A stretch of 64,000 nt of DNA from Phycisphaerales bacterium. GTDB taxonomy: Bacteria; Bacteroidota; Bacteroidia; Chitinophagales; Chitinophagaceae. The translations under genes and the position numbers were made by a program. Positions 48,691-58,246 of the stretch are shown piece by piece; positions within the stretch are counted from its first letter, which is position 1, and the number at the start of each line of letters is the position of its first letter. The notes under the pieces were generated by a model. It saw only the letters and a program-made list of their open reading frames with translations, searched no databases and was not told the DNA's origin. Location of the stretch: assembly GCA_030054025.1 (NCBI GenBank), contig JASGCQ010000003.1, positions 182 to 64,181 on the forward strand, in the 5' to 3' direction.

Positions 48691-49134
48691 TTAAATTTTC
48701 CAAACATCTACATCAGCAGCATTGTCTTCAGTTGTAGTTGCTGATGGCGTTGCAGCTGCAACACTTACTGTTGCAGATAATGCTTCTATGCTTTCTACAG
48801 ATTTGCTTTGCTCGTATTGCTCTTGATCATCAGCATGATTAAAAGCGTCAAAGTCAAAGTCGGGCATCAATTCTGTTTTTACATAATTGACAGTTTCTAC
48901 AAGAGCCTCAGCAAATTTATTAAAGTCTTCTTTGTAAATAAACATTTTATGGCGGTCGTATCCATCATCTTCAAAACGTTTTTTACTTTCTGTAATGGTA
49001 ATGAAGTAATCATTGCCCTTAGTAGATTTTACATCAAAAAAGTAAGTTCTTCTTTTACCTGCTTTTACTCTTTTGCTAAAAATGCTTTCATTGTTACGGT
49101 TCGCATCTCCGTAGTTTTTGTTGTCGTACGCCAC
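48691..49134 (-). CDS. DUF3276 family (PUR-like) nucleic-acid-binding protein (likely GTG start 49134)
   Basis: IFSKRVKAGKRRTYFFDVKST..NDYFITITESKK...RHKMFIYKEDF.KF. Confidence 0.9.
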   Translation of the reverse strand: MAYDNKNYGDANRNNESIFSKRVKAGKRRTYFFDVKSTKGNDYFITITESKKRFEDDGYDRHKMFIYKEDFNKFAEALVETVNYVKTELMPDFDFDAFNHADDQEQYEQSKSVESIEALSATVSVAAATPSATTTEDNAADVDVWKI

Positions 49135-49291
49135 TATTCGTGAGTTTTTAGTTATCAATATATCAGGACAAAAATAAAAAAGTACTTGGATAAACCAATT
49201 ATATTTTATTCAGACATGACCAATAATAAAGAACTAAAACTCTTTTTTGTTTTCTCAATAAACATCCTATATTTGCAACCCAATTGAAAAC

Positions 49292-49364
49292 GGTGCGATA
49301 GCTCAGTTGGTAGAGCAATGGACTGAAAATCCATGTGTCGGGGGTTCAAATCCCTCTCGCACCA
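49292..49364 (+). tRNA. tRNA-Phe (GAA)
   Basis: GGTGCGATAGCTCAGTTGGTAGAGCAATGGACTGAAAATCCATGTGTCGGGGGTTCAAATCCCTCTCGCACCA; promoter TATATTTG at 49268. Confidence 0.97.
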
Positions 49365-49377
49365 CAAGAAAGGACAA

Positions 49378-51039: not shown

Positions 51040-51255
51040 CTATTTGAGTTTACATTTTGCATTTTGTGAGCTGAATGTTTTTTCAAAAGACTGGCACATG
51101 TCCTTTGCATTCCCTTTTTTTGCAGGAAGCACTTCCTGAAAAACAACGTCACCATTGGCAGTGCATTCACATTGCCAGTCTTTGACTTTGTTACAAGCAC
51201 TAAGGCCACTTAGAATAGTAGTTGCTATAAGAGCAACAAGAAAATTTACTTTCAT
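51040..51255 (-). CDS. Small Cys-rich lipoprotein
   Basis: LSAC lipobox; WQCEC...C...C. Confidence 0.7.
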   Translation of the reverse strand: MKVNFLVALIATTILSGLSACNKVKDWQCECTANGDVVFQEVLPAKKGNAKDMCQSFEKTFSSQNAKCKLK

Positions 51256-51282
51256 ATATTTTATGTTTTTTGAGTGACTATT

Positions 51283-51933
51283 TTATTTGCTGTTTATTTG
51301 ATGCAGTAAATGGAATACCGTTGCCAAATGCCATTTGCAATTTTTGTTTCTGTAAGTGGGTATTTTTGCTTTATTCAATTCCTTTGTAATAGCGCGCATT
51401 GTAGTGTATCCCTTTGCTTGCAGTTCTTTTATTACAGGTTTCATTTTGTTTGCAAACCTTTTTGAAAGCCGTTTGTTTTTCTTGGCAAGAACAGCGCTGT
51501 ATTTACCCAGTTTTACACCCCTTCGTTTTGCCGCTGCAAGTGCTATTACTGTTCTATACGCTGTATCTTTTCTTTCTTTCTCCGCAACAGCAGCAAGAAT
51601 ATGAAGCGTGAAGGGTTCGGCAAAAGGCGCATCAATTGCCTTAAATGCAACCTTTGATTCAATGAGTGCTGCTATAAAAGCAACGCTTCTACTGAGCCTG
51701 TCCAGTTTTGCAATTAGCAAGGTGGCATTCTGAATTTGACATTCTTTTAGCGCCGCCCTTAGCCCTGGCCTTTCATTACGCTTCCCACTTTCAGTTTCCA
51801 GAAAATCATTGACGATTTTATATCGGTTTATTCTCGCAAATCCTTCCACAGCATACCTTTGAGCATCAAGACCCAGACCGCTGGCTTCCTGTTTTTTCCT
51901 TGAAACACGATAGTATGCTATTGCTTTTTCCAT
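51283..51933 (-). CDS. Small serine recombinase (resolvase/invertase) with a C-terminal DNA-binding helix domain
   Basis: AYYRVS (catalytic Ser), GLGLDAQR, ESGKR.ERP.L, LLIAKLDRLSR, MRAITKELN...IPT...KWHLATV. Confidence 0.92.
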   Translation of the reverse strand: MEKAIAYYRVSRKKQEASGLGLDAQRYAVEGFARINRYKIVNDFLETESGKRNERPGLRAALKECQIQNATLLIAKLDRLSRSVAFIAALIESKVAFKAIDAPFAEPFTLHILAAVAEKERKDTAYRTVIALAAAKRRGVKLGKYSAVLAKKNKRLSKRFANKMKPVIKELQAKGYTTMRAITKELNKAKIPTYRNKNCKWHLATVFHLLHQINSK

Positions 51934-51961
51934 ACCATTGCTACTCCAATTGTGCTCAAAA

Positions 51962-51995
51962 TGTTCAGGTATATACCAACGTTTACCTTTGAACA
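51962..51995 (+). other. Putative recombination site A (34 bp)
   Basis: TGTTCA-GGTATA-TACCAACGT-TTACCTT-TGAACA. Confidence 0.65.
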
Positions 51996-52110
51996 GATTT
52001 GTTCACAGATTAAGTTATTTGACAAGTAGATGATACAACGAAGCCCTGCTTATAGCAAGGCTTTCGAAGAAATTTCAGAAATGAGAATTGATGTATTTAG
52101 ACGGGAGTTT

Positions 52111-52144
52111 TGTTCATAAGTGTACGTTGGTTTACTTATGAACA
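52111..52144 (-). other. Putative recombination site B (34 bp, inverted relative to A)
   Basis: Minus strand TGTTCA-TAAGTA-AACCAACGT-ACACTTA-TGAACA: same arms, core and spacing as site A. Confidence 0.65.
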
Positions 52145-52216
52145 AAAAAATTACAGTATTTTTTTGAATCGGCTATAAATTTTGCGAGGAACAAAATTCA
52201 ATTGTTGCAAAAGTTG

Positions 52217-52711
52217 TTATAGATAGTAATTCAGCAAAGCCATTAAAAACTTGTTGGCATTTTCGAAATTATCTTTCTGTTCATTAATTAACCGTATATC
52301 TTTTTCGCCGTGGAAAAGATTGTTCCGCAATCGAAAAATGATTATTGCAATAGCAATAATTTTCTCATTGGTAGGTGCGGCTGTATTAGTAAGAGTGGTA
52401 GATACGAAAAGCATTTTATCGGCGGCTCTGAATTTTAAATGTTCAAACCTGTCATTGGTCTGCCTGTTCGTTACATACCTGTTTGAGAAGTAGGAATATA
52501 CCTCCTCAAATTGACTCCAATCCAAAGCCGTATTATTAATTAACGAACGTTCAATTACATCGGCGGTGCAGAACCTACCACAAACCTTGTCTTCAAAAAT
52601 GTTCCAGAATAGAGAGAAGTATTTAACGGACTCTAATTCTACTTCGTTCAGATCCACTCCAAACTTCAGATTTATCCAGTTGAGGAGGGGTGTGAATTTT
52701 GCTTCTGTCAT
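52217..52711 (-). CDS. Putative HEPN-domain ribonuclease
   Basis: FSLFWNIFE N-terminal helix and RLRNNLFHGEK (R-x4-H) near the C-terminus. Confidence 0.65.
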   Translation of the reverse strand: MTEAKFTPLLNWINLKFGVDLNEVELESVKYFSLFWNIFEDKVCGRFCTADVIERSLINNTALDWSQFEEVYSYFSNRYVTNRQTNDRFEHLKFRAADKMLFVSTTLTNTAAPTNEKIIAIAIIIFRLRNNLFHGEKDIRLINEQKDNFENANKFLMALLNYYL

Positions 52712-52770
52712 GTAATTCTACGATTAGTTTTATTTGAAATTGATTAAACTTAGATTAGGATACTTTGGTT

Positions 52771-53658
52771 TTATTGGTTTTCAACACTTCGTTCTTTATC
52801 CTTACAGATAATGAGCATTATCGGAACTCCAGGACGATCGTGCTCCGCTTTATATTCTGGGTAGTAATAATAATAGTTGAATAAATCTTTCAGATGCTCC
52901 AGTCCAATTCCTCGCACCGTGCGGCTTGGTGCTTTACCAGAACCTACATTCAGTAGATCATTCACAATACAGTTCCAACCGTTATCAAGTTTGTTTCTAG
53001 GAGTGGTAAATTTCAATCCCATTTTCATCTCAAGGAAAAGTTGGATAAAGCAATCCCATCCATAATTTAAATTGCTTGAGCTGGGAATATCCTTTGCTAC
53101 GGGATGCCCATTATTTAGTATCAGGTATGACAAAGCTCTGTCCCGCAAATGGTCATAGTCAGGTAACATTCTTAACGAGGATAAACTACTTGAAAATCTT
53201 GCGACTGTATTTGGCATTTCGAATGTTATATCAGATTCATAAAGGCACCTTTGAGATTCTGAATTAAGAACATCAGTTTTCTTTGCCTGCATAATATTGG
53301 CTGTTGAGAAAACGGTTTTCTTGTGCTTATCAAGCAATATAAATACCGTCATCAAATCACCTAGCTCGCAACCCGGAGAACTACCAGTGCAGCTTCCAAT
53401 TGAATCTGCTGTTCGGGTAATTATAGGCTTGCCATGACAGAATACCGAAGCGAATTTTAATTCAAAATTTGTTTCCTCAGTAATTTTCTTTGCAATATTT
53501 TGGTTTAAATAGTCAACCCCCTTTCCCGGGCTTAATAAATATTGTTTTATTATTTCTGGCTCCTCTTTTGCAAAGTTTATCCCAAGCCAACTATTGCTTG
53601 CTTCAGTTCTGATCAAATCCGAATAGGCAGAAATCATATTAATGTATTGTCTGATCAT
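52771..53658 (-). CDS. Putative PD-(D/E)xK restriction-endonuclease-fold nuclease
   Basis: CELGDL...ANIMQAK: acidic residue(s) followed by a QxK motif on a beta-strand. Confidence 0.5.
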   Translation of the reverse strand: MIRQYINMISAYSDLIRTEASNSWLGINFAKEEPEIIKQYLLSPGKGVDYLNQNIAKKITEETNFELKFASVFCHGKPIITRTADSIGSCTGSSPGCELGDLMTVFILLDKHKKTVFSTANIMQAKKTDVLNSESQRCLYESDITFEMPNTVARFSSSLSSLRMLPDYDHLRDRALSYLILNNGHPVAKDIPSSSNLNYGWDCFIQLFLEMKMGLKFTTPRNKLDNGWNCIVNDLLNVGSGKAPSRTVRGIGLEHLKDLFNYYYYYPEYKAEHDRPGVPIMLIICKDKERSVENQ

Positions 53659-54356
53659 ATGGGTTTGTTTTTTGTAATCTCATCAAAAGGAAGCGCACTA
53701 TTTTCAATTGTATAATAGCCGAATTTAATAGCAGCAATAACAAGCCCAACCCGAGAATTTATTTGTAGTTTTTCAAACAGTCTGGATCTTATACCATCAA
53801 TAGTTTTGAATGTAGTTCCACATTGAATCGCTATGTCAGCATAGCTTAAATCGGAACATATCAGTTTCATAAATTCAATCTCTCTATCATTCAATACAAC
53901 AGGTTTACTTTTTGAATTAGCTATCTCTTCTATCTTTCGTTCGCTTATTGTTTCATTATAGTAATAGCCTTTTGCAATCACTTTTTTAATTGCAAAATTG
54001 AGTTCCTCAGGTGTGCATGATTTCAGCATAAACCCATTTGCGCCTGCTTTTATCACCTCAATCACCTCATGTTCGTGATCAAAAGAAGATAGTATAATAC
54101 AAGGTAAACCTGGCCATCTTTTTTTTATTTCTTTCAAAAGAACAATCCCATTCATCACTGGCATATTTATATCAATAAGGCAGGCATCTGGTAACTCGTC
54201 AGATAATAAAAGCATATCCAACATTTCCTGACCATTCTTTGCCTGTATTGTTACTTTCATTTTTCTTTTTTCCTCAATGCAATGAGTTATTCCTTCACGG
54301 ACTGCATTATGATCATCGGCAAAAGCGATCTTCTTAATATTGGCTTTCGAATTCAT
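53655..54356 (-). CDS. NarL/LuxR-type response regulator (orphan)
   Basis: IAFADDH, CLIDINMP (phospho-Asp), ILSS, GFMLK, LNDREIEF..LI..DLSYADIA HTH. Confidence 0.92.
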   Translation of the reverse strand: MNSKANIKKIAFADDHNAVREGITHCIEEKRKMKVTIQAKNGQEMLDMLLLSDELPDACLIDINMPVMNGIVLLKEIKKRWPGLPCIILSSFDHEHEVIEVIKAGANGFMLKSCTPEELNFAIKKVIAKGYYYNETISERKIEEIANSKSKPVVLNDREIEFMKLICSDLSYADIAIQCGTTFKTIDGIRSRLFEKLQINSRVGLVIAAIKFGYYTIENSALPFDEITKNKPI

Positions 54357-54450
54357 TCGTTAAAAGTAAATGGGAAGTGCTATATCTAGGCGGGGAAAAT
54401 GACACGATTTTTTTAGGTTATTTTTTGAAAATTGAATGCATGATTTCAAT

Positions 54451-54484
54451 AAAAAAGGCTATTTCATTTGATGAAATAGCCTTT
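54451..54484 (-). terminator. Terminator after the 588-aa T9SS gene
   Basis: AAAAAAGGCTATTTCAT-TTG-ATGAAATAGCCTTT. Confidence 0.8.
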
Positions 54485-54505
54485 AATCAGGTTGTTTTGA
54501 AACGT

Positions 54506-56272
54506 TTATTCTTTCACAATCTTAGCTGAATAAACAGCACCATCCGCATTATGGATTTGCACGAGATACATACCTCTCGCCAAATGGCTTATCGCTAATT
54601 GTTCTTTGTTTGATTTAGCCACAAAACTTTGCACTTGCTGGCCAAGGACGCTGAACAGGCGAACCTCTGAACCGTTCTCTAAACCTTCGAAAGTGATTAC
54701 ATCCTGTGCAGGGTTAGGGTAGATTTTGATGCTTGAATTTGCTGTTACACTTTCATTAATAGATACAGGCTCTTTACAATCTGCTTCACCAAATTTGGCA
54801 ATGAAAAAATCAGTTTGACCACCATATTTTGTAAGCGTTGTAACACCATTTATTTCGAGTGTAGATTTAAAATATCCTCCCAAATAAAAGTTACCATTTC
54901 TATCTGCTACTAATGACTGAGCTTCCTCATAGTCGCCACCTCTCACACTGTCAATTGCAATAGTAGCACCTGTTGAAGCATTTAATCTAATAAAAAAAAT
55001 GTTTGAGGGTACAGCAAACATGCTATCTGTATCCCAATACATTTTTGAGTTTACATTTCCTGCAAATGCGATTTCTCCTTTATTAGATACAGATATACAC
55101 TTTGCTTGTGTGTTTGTTGATGCACTACCACTTTTACCCCAAACAAGAATGCCTGAAGGACTTACTTTGAAAACACAAGGAACGGCAAGACCACCAAGCT
55201 TATTGACAATACTATGACCTAAAAAATTACCTCCTCCATATTCGGATGTACTGATGTAAATATTGCCATCAGCATCTAAAACTGGCGTTGAAGAGAGTAC
55301 TCCTGTATAGCTAGTAGTTGAGGATTGTTTCACCCAGATATTTGCACCTGTATTGCTGAACTTTGACAAACAATTAGTGCCTGTCATTTTTGCTGTGCCA
55401 AATTTGGGATAATTAACACCAGTAGTACCGATATTTAAAGACATCAGGTAATAAACATCTGCTTTGTAATCCCAAACCATTCGAATTCTGAATAACGAGA
55501 TTTGCTCGCCTTCAGATATGTCCAATGGAAAGCCTTTAATAAAATTACCATTGGCATCATATTTTAGTATGTGCATTGAAGGTAATGCTGTTGATATTGG
55601 AACAATATAGGAGCCCTTAGCAAATGCACCTGAATGATTAATACAGGTCAACATGGATATATTTCCTGCTTTATCTACTTCCATTGATATTGATCTAGAA
55701 TATTTGGAAATGGACATTGTATCCGGTTCAGGCATTCGAAGCCATTTGTAATTACCAGAAGTGTCAAACTTTATTATAAACAAGGATTGATAAAAACGAA
55801 AAGGAGCAACAGTGGGGGAGCGAAGCATTGTATCTGTTGCAATCGCAACAGAATCAAACATACTACCTGCAAAAAAATTACCTGAGATATAGACTCCACC
55901 TAATGTATCTGTTTTTACATCACAAGCCACATCAGATTTTTTTCCTCCAAGTATTTTGTTCCACCTGAATTTGCCGCTACAATCAAAGCTAGTCAAACAA
56001 ATATCTTTATCCCCATTACCACTTCCAATTTTATTTCCGTCAATATCAATAGTGCCAGATACTTTATTTGTAAAAACAGTAGATAGAATATAACTGTTGC
56101 CATTGGCATCCGTGGCTAAAACTTTTAATTCATCGATGTCGGTGCTATTTATACCTGATACATTTGTACCACCCCGCTTTCCCCATTGCCAGCTCTGAGC
56201 AGAGGCTTCACCAATGCTAAATGATAATTGTGTAAAGATTAATGTTGCAAAAGCGCATAATATTTTTTTCAT
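54506..56272 (-). CDS. T9SS-secreted beta-propeller (SBBP-like repeat) protein
   Basis: Signal peptide ...SAQSWQWGKRGG; repeated D..GN.Y..G.F and KFD.SG...W blades; CTD IYPNPA...GMYLV...KIVKE. Confidence 0.85.
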   Translation of the reverse strand: MKKILCAFATLIFTQLSFSIGEASAQSWQWGKRGGTNVSGINSTDIDELKVLATDANGNSYILSTVFTNKVSGTIDIDGNKIGSGNGDKDICLTSFDCSGKFRWNKILGGKKSDVACDVKTDTLGGVYISGNFFAGSMFDSVAIATDTMLRSPTVAPFRFYQSLFIIKFDTSGNYKWLRMPEPDTMSISKYSRSISMEVDKAGNISMLTCINHSGAFAKGSYIVPISTALPSMHILKYDANGNFIKGFPLDISEGEQISLFRIRMVWDYKADVYYLMSLNIGTTGVNYPKFGTAKMTGTNCLSKFSNTGANIWVKQSSTTSYTGVLSSTPVLDADGNIYISTSEYGGGNFLGHSIVNKLGGLAVPCVFKVSPSGILVWGKSGSASTNTQAKCISVSNKGEIAFAGNVNSKMYWDTDSMFAVPSNIFFIRLNASTGATIAIDSVRGGDYEEAQSLVADRNGNFYLGGYFKSTLEINGVTTLTKYGGQTDFFIAKFGEADCKEPVSINESVTANSSIKIYPNPAQDVITFEGLENGSEVRLFSVLGQQVQSFVAKSNKEQLAISHLARGMYLVQIHNADGAVYSAKIVKE

Positions 56273-56315
56273 AGAAGAGGTTTTTGGTACTTTAAAATTA
56301 AGTCATTTTTTGATT

Positions 56316-56350
56316 AAAAAGCTGCCCCGCATTTTGCGGGACAGCTTTTT
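56316..56350 (-). terminator. Terminator after the PKD/T9SS gene
   Basis: AAAAAGCTG.CCCGC-ATTTT-GCGGG.CAGCTTTTT. Confidence 0.75.
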
Positions 56351-56362
56351 GTGTTCATCAAT

Positions 56363-58246
56363 TTACTTTACTACGCTTAATTTGCCATGTAAGAATACAT
56401 TGCCATCCTGACGCAGGATTACCTGATACAATCCTGAACTGAATCCATCCAGATTGAGGATAGCTGTGCCATACCTTTCCTGTACGGACTCACTCAGCAT
56501 TTTACGGCCAGCCATATCATACACTTCAATAGATCGTTGGTCGGACTTGCCTGTAAACCCAAACTCAATGCGTACTGTGCTTTGGGCAGGGTTAGGCATC
56601 ATGGTCAGACGGGCCAACTCATTGGCAACTACATTGCCGTTGTCGATGGTCGTGTCCTCTGTGCGTCTTGCCATGCTGTTAGGGCAGGGGGTTCCTATTG
56701 GCAAAGGAATTCTCGCCCTGCAAGACTGACCAGTCATTGGGTTATAAAAAATTGCCGTAATGAAATCTATCGGACCTGTAAATCCGGGATCTGCTATATA
56801 ACGGAATTTCTTGATTGGCGAGGGTCCGATACCCGTAGCAGGTAGCAATGTGCCATTGTCGCAATAGATGGTATAGGTCACAAAAGGAGCGCAACCTATG
56901 CCCAATTCTACTGTGTCATAACACATACCTCCACCCGCCATAGTCTGTGTCGCACTAATAAACTGAATACCGCCAAAACATCCGCCAGGACAATCCTTGA
57001 ACGAAATGTTCAAATCGCCGCTTGTATCAATACAAGGGGTGTTCTCCAATACCAGATTGTAGGTTCCTGGTGCAGTGACTGAATAAGTGGTCACTGTGCC
57101 AGTGCCTTTAGATACCATCGAACCGTTCATCAACCATTCCCAATAATCAAAACTGGCTGGTGCTTTTGGTCCTAGTAAATCGAATGGTGCTTCGTTTTCG
57201 CAAAGCTCATAACAACCAACAGGGAAAACGTATTGGTAGACATCGGGCTTGTGCGGAACATCGATGTCGCTATAGGACATACAGCCAAATTCATCGGTTA
57301 GCCAAACCCTGTAAGGACCACCTGTATAAACATACACAGGTGTACCTACATCACCCGAACTCCAATTGAATGTGCCGACACTTGAAGAAGTGGCCGTCAA
57401 CTCCACTTTATATTCGGCGCAAGACAAAATATTAAAGGCAGGGGTAGGATTGACCGGATAAGGATGCACGACTACTGTAATCGGATCACTGGTATCAGTG
57501 CAGGTCACACCGGATAGCGTTACCGAAATCACCAATCGATAGGTATAGGAACCCGCTATATTGGAGAAGTCGAAATAGGGCGTAGAGCCACTGAAGCTTG
57601 GTACACCATTTTCATACCAGGTGTAGGTAGCTGATGGATCGAAAGCCGCAGCAGGATAAAATACACGATACAAAGTACCTTCGCAAACACTGGTATCAGC
57701 CGATATCAGAGCTTCGGGCACACGGTTGAAATCAACAATCGTGGTAGCTGTTTTATCGCTACAACCAATTGCATCTTTTCCCCAAACCCAATAAGCACCT
57801 GGTTCGTATACTACTCTGGTACTACTTGTATTTTCTTCCAAAAAATTAGTGCTTTCATGCCATTTAAAAGTAGTTGGCATTCCTGGACCTGGAGTTGGAT
57901 CATAAGTAAGTGTTATCGGCGAACCAGAACAGGCTAATGATGATGACGAATCTAAATACCCATCTAAATTATTTGACCTAACATCAACCGTGGCTGTCAC
58001 AGAGTCAGAACAACCATAAAGGTCAGTAATGGTCAATGTTACTAAATAATTACCAATTGCATCAGCATAAATCTTCCATGGACTCCATAGGTTATTATCC
58101 GAGCCATCCCCAAAAGTCCAATGCGCGTTCCAGGCAGGTTCAGAAACAGTCGAAGTATTGGTGAACTCTACTACTGCATCGTCAATACAAGCGGGGTTGT
58201 ATTTGGGTATGGTAAAAGAAGCACTGAATTCAAGAGTGAAGTGCAA
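56363..58246 (-). pseudogene. 5-prime-truncated PKD-domain T9SS surface protein
   Basis: Starts mid-PKD domain (ASF...C....V.FTNTS...WTFGDG) with no signal peptide; intact CTD MMPNPA...GLYQV...KLSVVK; IS1380 remnant immediately upstream. Confidence 0.7.

Follow-up and report, generated by a model that had tools for sequence, protein, structure and literature searches.

Detocs is a two-component-like anti-phage system that consists of a kinase-like sensor, a buffer receiver and a receiver-effector. Stand-alone HEPN genes present in restriction-modification (R-M), Pgl and BREX loci are regarded as auxiliary or backup effectors (PMC3710099, PMC12839542), and AbiV (HEPN-AbiV) of Lactococcus is described (bioRxiv 10.1101/2024.05.05.592566) as a single-protein abortive-infection ribonuclease (RNase). 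AbiV typically lacks the histidine of the HEPN motif and uses another histidine (PMC3710099). Here we analyze a locus that shares features with these systems. It occupies positions 52217 to 54356 of a 64,000-nucleotide stretch of contig JASGCQ010000003.1, referred to below as the window, and contains, in this order, genes for a NarL-type response regulator of 233 amino acids (aa), for a 295-aa protein (the middle gene) and for a 164-aa protein (the small gene). An original prediction had interpreted these genes as a candidate signal-controlled defense system composed of a response regulator, a QxK nuclease and a HEPN RNase. Our results favor another reading, to which we assign a probability of roughly 0.55, namely that the locus is a modular, horizontally assembled defense islet and not a dedicated three-component system. 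What is new are two unannotated defense-associated families and an unusual type of regulator, and not a new multi-gene system.

As originally stated, the triad corresponds to no named system; PADLOC returned no match. Detocs, HEPN-MNT, AbiV and WYL-regulated systems are functional analogies to the locus, which is a member of none of them. With Detocs it shares a receiver domain in a putative anti-phage context and the idea of effectors gated by a phospho-relay; unlike in Detocs, the receiver is fused to a LuxR-type DNA-binding domain, there are no kinase motifs in the window, a gene for a buffer protein is likewise missing nearby, and neither the regulator nor the effectors gave a PADLOC match. 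The WYL protein BrxR of BREX (PMC9122589) offers a likeness in that the gene of a DNA-binding regulator lies just upstream of a potentially toxic effector, co-oriented or divergent, and a WYL-WCX gene adjoins a homologue of the 295-aa gene in locus L017. The regulator of the window, whose regulatory role is predicted, is however of the phosphorylation-dependent two-component type and not a ligand-binding WYL protein.

The small gene has its own set of analogies. Like the embedded stand-alone HEPN genes (PMC3710099, PMC12839542), it encodes a small, free-standing protein with an Rx4H motif, a polar residue after the arginine and an acidic residue in helix 2, and its family occurs in BREX, type I R-M and ATPase-based defense operons, either internally or at their 3′ end. 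Unlike these genes, the copy in the window follows a gene that lies outside any named system, and the family has no Pfam HEPN match. AbiV resembles the 164-aa protein as a short, stand-alone HEPN protein that is proposed to act alone during infection and is found on mobile DNA and prophages, but the 164-aa family retains the canonical His134 and gave no AbiV match in PADLOC. HEPN-MNT (HepT-MntA) similarly has an Rx4H HEPN RNase encoded in a small operon, the RNase role being predicted in the present case; unlike in HEPN-MNT, no MNT or other nucleotidyltransferase is encoded by either neighbor or among the recurrent neighbors of the small gene.

Gene layout, regulator and variable cassette

All three genes are located on the reverse strand: the regulator gene at 54356 to 53655, the middle gene at 53658 to 52771 and the small gene at 52711 to 52217. 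The coordinates of the open reading frames (ORFs) and the sequence agree with the original description of three co-oriented genes, a 4-bp ATGA overlap (53655-53658) formed by the TGA of the regulator gene and the ATG of the middle gene, and a 59-bp spacer between the middle and the small gene (52712-52770). In the NCBI annotation the middle gene begins at an internal methionine, Met8 (288 aa; region 53637-53658), which results in a 17-nt gap and no overlap; the Logan gene call starts further upstream, at the ATG overlapping the regulator's stop codon. The upstream ATG is the better start call because the residues ahead of Met8 are conserved in the alignment of the 295-aa family, and because in contig L107, which is 93% identical to the window at the nucleotide level, the two genes share the identical -4 overlap.

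A scan of region 51200-54700 detected a single terminator-like site, an intrinsic-terminator hairpin with a 14-bp stem and a T-run (54454-54484, reverse strand), and no such site between any of the three genes. The upstream gene, which encodes a protein sorted by the type IX secretion system (T9SS), ends at this hairpin, and the regulator gene therefore starts a new transcription unit. The three genes would then be co-transcribed.

The first gene (53655-54356, reverse strand) encodes a NarL/LuxR-type response regulator in which Pfam identifies a receiver domain (Response_reg, 5.9e-25, residues 11-123) and a GerE helix-turn-helix (2.5e-7, residues 154-208). Its best NCBIfam models are of the NarL/UvrY/UhpA type, all under their equivalog cut-offs. 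The phospho-acceptor pocket is intact in the translation (D14, D15, D62, S90 and K112, with the codon of the acceptor D62 at 54171-54173), which bears out the earlier claim that the regulator keeps its phospho-acceptor motifs. Histidine-kinase G1/G2 ATP-lid motifs were found neither in ORFs of at least 100 aa nor in any frame of the 64-kb window, and a Pfam scan of ten flanking genes revealed no kinase domain. At the level of motifs, the statement that no histidine kinase is encoded in the window thus stands, and the regulator is, as judged from these scans, an orphan with no cognate histidine kinase alongside. Control of the locus may be exerted via phosphorylation of the regulator.

The distribution of the genes argues for two separate modules. 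The middle gene was present in 0 of 136 loci containing the small gene, and the small gene in 0 of 24 loci containing the middle gene. A NarL-type regulator was found beside the middle gene only in the close relatives L004 and L107 (77-93% nucleotide identity). The regulator-middle pair is 93% identical in L107 and 77% identical in L004 at the nucleotide level, the orthologous regulator and middle protein of L004 being 75% and 84% identical at the aa level, respectively. In blastn comparisons, the homology of both relatives to the window ends at 52775-52778, where the middle gene has its stop codon. In L004 it restarts at 52146, from where it continues with 93% identity into a serine recombinase gene. 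The 628 bp in between (52147-52774), which comprise the 59-bp spacer, the small gene and 70 bp downstream of it, constitute a variable cassette that is absent from L107 and L004. The corresponding slot of L004 contains ~4 kb of other genes (methyltransferase-like, JmjC_2, acetyltransferase and others), and that of L107 a gene of at least 510 aa without an assigned family that runs to the contig end.

The cassette slot is flanked by the gene of a small serine recombinase of the resolvase type (51283-51933, reverse strand; 216 aa). About 175 bp upstream of the recombinase gene lies a perfect inverted repeat with 14-nt arms, TTTTGTTCATAAGT-N12-ACTTATGAACAAAA (52108-52147; 12-nt spacer). Its outer edge coincides with the cassette boundary, and it is conserved at the equivalent boundary in L004 (11884-11923). 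Over this hairpin and the first part of the recombinase gene, identity with L004 is 93%, which exceeds the 77% of the regulator-middle pair. The inverted repeat may be the recombination site of a cassette-exchanging element.

These results bear directly on the reading in which the three genes form an integrated, signal-controlled triad, an unlinked kinase sensing infection or envelope stress and the regulator inducing a deoxyribonuclease (DNase) and an RNase that cooperate. The operon-like layout behind a terminator and the 4-bp overlap are in line with such a system, as are the intact phospho-acceptor residues of the regulator and the association of both effector families with defense described below. 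In addition, the middle/small junction is spanned by contigs from biofilm, bioreactor and one organism-labeled run at roughly 97-99% identity; the triad is stably inherited in this lineage and could there be functionally integrated, which weighs against a purely modular locus. The junction was however seen in near-identical strains only, the regulator is restricted to close relatives, and the third position has been swapped for other genes in L004 and L107. Moreover, the motif scan revealed no kinase nearby, and ATGA overlaps, which are frequent between adjacent co-directional genes, are a sign of an operon and not of functional partnership. The claim of a three-gene co-evolving system thus failed on the 0/136 and 0/24 co-occurrence counts and on the other genes found at the third position in relatives. 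Conservation of the neighborhood of the triad, which had been set beforehand as a test of the original prediction, was absent outside near-identical strains. Because the triad genes do not co-occur beyond such strains, an integrated three-gene system is unsupported, and we consider it unlikely.

The 164-aa family and its genomic contexts

The small gene (52217-52711, reverse strand) encodes a stand-alone HEPN-like protein that belongs to an unnamed, widespread and defense-associated family. An initial search retrieved 34 homologues, and a genome scan identified at least 161 species representatives with a gene of this family, which is present in Bacteroidota, Pseudomonadota, Planctomycetota, Chloroflexota, Gastranaerophilales and one Nitrososphaeraceae archaeon. 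It was also found on 58 viral contigs of IMG/VR and on 10 RefSeq plasmids, where every entry is annotated as 'hypothetical protein'.

In a broad alignment of 60 diverse sequences, each at most 49% identical to the protein of the window, residues R129, N130, N131, L132 and H134 are invariant, and E40, R78, Y79, R127, G135, K137 and Q145 are conserved in at least 90% of the members. The R-x4-H motif (R129-N-N-L-F-H134, codons at 52310-52327 of the reverse strand) is not due to chance, since it is invariant across these 60 diverse homologues. HEPN proteins are defined by an Rx4-6H motif in which a polar residue (N, D or H) directly follows the arginine (PMC3710099), and in the 164-aa protein N130 directly follows R129. 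The AlphaFold2 (AF2) model, with a predicted local distance difference test score (pLDDT) of 91.8, is all-helical. The motif lies at the end of helix 3 (114-133), H134 is the first residue of the loop that leads to helix 4, which is the last one (139-163), and helices within residues 50-108 form an insert between helices 2 and 3. An acidic residue of helix 2, the further feature looked for, is provided by E40; it is part of a WNIFE motif in helix 23-44 and is invariant in a narrower alignment and at least 90% conserved in the broad one.

The HEPN assignment is supported by the motif and the predicted topology. The protein has no Pfam, NCBIfam or PADLOC match, and in PHROGs it matches phrog_27260, a family of unknown function. 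Three comparisons speak against the assignment. Pfam searches on 34 members of the family gave a single HEPN_Apea match (E = 0.15), family profiles run against the PDB gave two weak matches to eS1 (E ~0.6), obtained with one alignment only, and none to a HEPN protein, and the best Foldseek match of the AF2 model in the PDB had an E-value of 0.7, a Csm6 chain ranking 12th (E = 1.2). Of the earlier HEPN reading, the motif, its position, the acidic residue and the order of helices hold, and Foldseek and the PDB profiles lend it no support. By analogy with HEPN proteins, the 164-aa protein could be a metal-independent RNase.

In 93 non-redundant loci, a same-strand gene was located within 50 bp upstream of the small gene in 35 cases and within 50 bp downstream in 24. 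The partners are mutually unrelated, but most of them are known defense genes. Among the neighbors are Ppl/TrlF-like ATPases (966-1030 aa), GajB-like helicases (Gabija-like), AbiO/Nhi helicases and AbiLi. In BREX the small gene is located between pglX and pglZ, in type I R-M loci it neighbors hsdR, with a 4-bp overlap, and hsdS, and in other loci it ends a row formed by PD-T7-1, a Lit-like peptidase and a T5orf172/GIY-YIG protein. As far as gene neighborhoods can tell, these contexts match the pattern of stand-alone HEPN genes that act as auxiliary or backup effectors.

Several recurrent arrangements of the small gene were noted. The row of PD-T7-1, Lit-like Peptidase_U49, T5orf172/MUG113 and the small gene recurs in Proteobacteria (L055, L060, L063 and L095). 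On plasmid pSinA (L113, NC_021209.1, 18097-23777) a related row comprises five co-oriented genes, which encode, in this order, a TrlF-family AAA-like ATPase, a TauD/TfdA dioxygenase, a hypothetical protein, a GIY-YIG nuclease and the small HEPN-like protein. The closest homologues of the small gene (Psychroflexus, Algibacter, Galbibacter and Algoriphagus) are followed at a distance of 0-3 bp by the gene of a conserved 288-aa multi-pass membrane protein (L027:498-1364, L028:4813-5679, L030:739-1605 and L036:5475-6341). This protein has a basic C-terminal tail, no PADLOC match and, in Pfam, only a weak sub-threshold KIX_2 match. It is possible that the small gene and the 288-aa gene form a two-gene module of a HEPN protein and a membrane effector. 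Two candidate relationships were considered for genes next to small-gene homologues and rejected. The 288-aa gene is not a diverged 295-aa gene, as it encodes a multi-pass membrane protein, and the large genes upstream of small-gene homologues, considered in terms of polymorphic toxin-immunity loci sharing the 295-aa domain, displayed no similarity to it by hhalign and BLASTP.

The 295-aa superfamily and its genomic contexts

The middle gene (52771-53658, reverse strand) encodes a member of an unannotated superfamily. An indexed search retrieved 28 homologues of the 295-aa protein, and a full HMMER search over 1.84 billion representatives yielded 235 representative clusters, 58 of which at ≤1e-30. 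A broad alignment was made of 95 members, with identities down to about 20%. In this alignment H75, P78, Q124, K126, Q136, Y140 and W228 are invariant, and E33, E98, G100, D101, A125 and L139 are near-invariant (E33, E98, D101 and L139 in 94 of the 95 members each). The Q124-A-K126 stretch was reported in 95/95, with A125 counted as near-invariant. Since it is kept across 95 diverse homologues, the D101...Q124-A-K126 motif is not due to chance.

The AF2 model (pLDDT 91.9) displays a nuclease-like α-β-β-β-α order. E33 is located within a helix and H75 just after strand 65-74. The codons of the core residues lie at 53239-53367 of the reverse strand. E98-L-G-D101 leads into strand 102-109, which D101 opens, and Q124-A-K126 forms the end of strand 115-126, the next one. 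The helix thereafter (134-141) contains Q136, L139 and Y140 of the Q136-x-x-L-Y140 stretch, as in the QhxxY motif of PD-(D/E)xK nucleases. D101 and K126 are thus located on successive strands, and Gln124 occupies the position where Asp or Glu is expected. As a hypothesis at the level of motifs, the order would mirror motifs II, III and QhxxY of RecB/Cas4-type nucleases, the second acid being replaced by Gln. The 295-aa protein is therefore classified here as a putative RecB-like PD-(D/E)xK-type nuclease from its motifs and secondary-structure order only. Tn7 TnsA uses a D...QxK variant.

In the order of its motifs the 295-aa protein resembles the RecB/Cas4/lambda-Exo nucleases: a strand start of the type hhhGD, a strand end of the type h-h-Q-x-K and a Q-x-x-x-Y helix follow one another, and a helix further upstream contains a conserved Glu. 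It differs from PD-(D/E)xK nucleases in that no sequence or structure homology was detected, in the Gln that replaces the second carboxylate, in the additional invariant residues H75, P78 and W228, and in the size of its domain, ~300 aa with large elaborations. Several negative results weigh against the nuclease reading. The protein has no Pfam, NCBIfam, PADLOC or PHROGs match; Foldseek of the AF2 model against PDB and BFVD returned nothing under E = 0.5; hidden Markov model profiles of the family found nothing relevant among PDB sequences; Pfam searches on all 95 members gave noise only, with no PDDEXK, Cas4 or YqaJ match; and hhalign of the family alignment with the nuclease domain of Escherichia coli RecB gave a probability of 0.07. 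Also, Gln in place of the second acid could signal a non-canonical or non-nuclease chemistry. What survives of the predicted QxK nuclease is a motif set that is real and conserved, the fold and profile searches all being negative. A further homologue search with the broad profile found no annotated relative, and the gene had no match in the plasmid collection. A sub-branch of the superfamily (P0095-P0116) consists of longer proteins, of 419-509 aa, in which ~150-200 aa without a Pfam match are added at the C-terminus.

The contexts of the homologues are variable and mostly island-like. Neighbors include NOV_C, Endonuclease_NS, SRAP and a serine recombinase in L005, an integrase, Beta_protein and HTH_3-Peptidase_M78 in L003, AbiTii, a transposase and nSTAND3 in L108, a divergent WYL-WCX regulator in L017, DUF2130 and an SMC/AAA_21 ATPase in L019, and TIR, a group II intron and IS110 in L174. 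PADLOC analysis of 95 neighbors identified RmrA, RT-TIR, BstA, PD-Lambda-2 B/C, AbiTii, WYL, MTase_II and REase_II. These matches, together with the named defense loci that contain the small gene, agree with the earlier statement that both effectors are of a kind associated with islands and defense. Distant homologues lack a NarL-type regulator and have instead WYL-WCX, HTH_3-Peptidase_M78, AraC or no regulator.

In L175 (4564-7978) and also in L176, an integrase gene lies next to three consecutive genes, which encode a Dam-type methyltransferase, a DUF6996/DUF6997/DUF7226/AAA_assoc_C protein and a distant superfamily member (P0224). A DNase function of the superfamily would be in keeping with such an R-M-like trio. 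The 165-aa gene that follows the homologue in L003 was considered as a diverged HEPN gene and rejected, as it has neither similarity to the small gene nor an Rx4H motif.

Not all contexts point to defense. The homologues in L001 and L002 are surrounded by genes that look like housekeeping genes of metabolism and translation, which counts against a defense islet and would fit a locus in which the regulator controls a lineage-specific gene for nucleic-acid metabolism or stress, the small gene is a passenger of the recombinase element, and the link with defense reflects residence on mobile DNA. Such an explanation would also agree with the recombinase gene and the variable slot at this locus, and with the fact that neither family has an experimentally characterized member among the homologues retrieved. 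It does not, however, account for the presence of the small gene inside named defense operons (between pglX and pglZ, overlapping hsdR by 4 bp, after Ppl-like ATPases), nor for the richness in PADLOC matches of the neighbors of the 295-aa family, and we regard it as improbable.

Proposed mechanism and significance

In the modular defense islet that we favor, module 1 (54356-52771) would consist of the orphan regulator gene and the overlapping gene of the 295-aa enzyme, a two-gene unit conserved in one lineage. A kinase encoded elsewhere would phosphorylate the regulator, which most likely sets the transcription of its own operon, a role akin to that apparently played by the WYL, HTH-M78 and AraC regulators beside other members of the superfamily. 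The 295-aa protein would act by itself against phages or mobile elements, as a Mg-dependent DNase effector. Module 2 (52774-52147) would be a 628-bp cassette that was acquired separately, encodes a stand-alone HEPN RNase and occupies the variable slot by the serine recombinase. As in other HEPN proteins, a composite R-x4-H site would be formed by dimerization of the 164-aa protein. In infected cells this protein would cleave RNA and so serve as an effector of the abortive-infection or 'backup' kind, being an add-on in many unrelated defense operons. A role in defense is plausible for both effectors on the basis of their genomic association, as is enzyme activity on the basis of their invariant residues.

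A bolder version of these ideas holds that the 295-aa protein, whose model of pLDDT 92 has no neighbor in PDB or BFVD, founds a structurally unprecedented enzyme superfamily, acting as a stand-alone anti-phage effector that was brought under phospho-relay control of transcription in this lineage, and that the HEPN family is a universal plug-in backup RNase, available as a cassette to any defense operon. Although we consider this doubtful, the locus would, if it were true, illustrate in nature a signal-gated immunity with two layers, one at the level of DNA and one at that of RNA. Very unlikely, finally, is a toxin-antitoxin or toxin-immunity pair, in which the 295-aa protein would restrain the HEPN toxin or the reverse and the regulator would autoregulate: HEPN RNases that occur free are as a rule toxic and have a neutralizing partner, for example in HEPN-MNT and RnlA-RnlB (PMC4621449, PMC8266594), and the small gene often has a same-strand gene within 50 bp, but its partners are unrelated among themselves, the 295-aa family was never beside it in the other loci examined, Pfam and NCBIfam show no MNT/nucleotidyltransferase or other recognized antitoxin domain in the middle gene, and the 295-aa protein has an enzyme-like set of invariant residues.

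Both families are without a Pfam, NCBIfam or PADLOC model, and their members are called 'hypothetical protein' where they are named at all. A model of the small HEPN-like family would improve the annotation of defense loci, and the 'backup RNase' idea could be put to a concrete test in this family. In the 295-aa superfamily we see a candidate for a new nuclease-type effector, and its lineage-specific link with a response regulator offers a tractable case in which to ask whether a defense gene can be placed under two-component control.

Some features of the surroundings are recorded here. The two large genes upstream of the regulator gene (54506-58246) encode T9SS-sorted proteins with a Por_Secre_tail, one of which also has a PKD domain. 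On the other side of the locus lies a DUF3276 gene (48691-49158), which together with the T9SS-sorted proteins assigns the window to Bacteroidota. A tRNA-Phe gene is located at 49292-49365. It is followed, up to ~51300 and ahead of the recombinase gene, by small genes without family matches, which encode two lipoprotein-like proteins (170 and 197 aa), a 136-aa protein with a Zn-ribbon and a transmembrane segment, and a 71-aa protein. Two metagenome runs from sponges contain the exact sequence, and biofilm and bioreactor metagenomes contain close variants.

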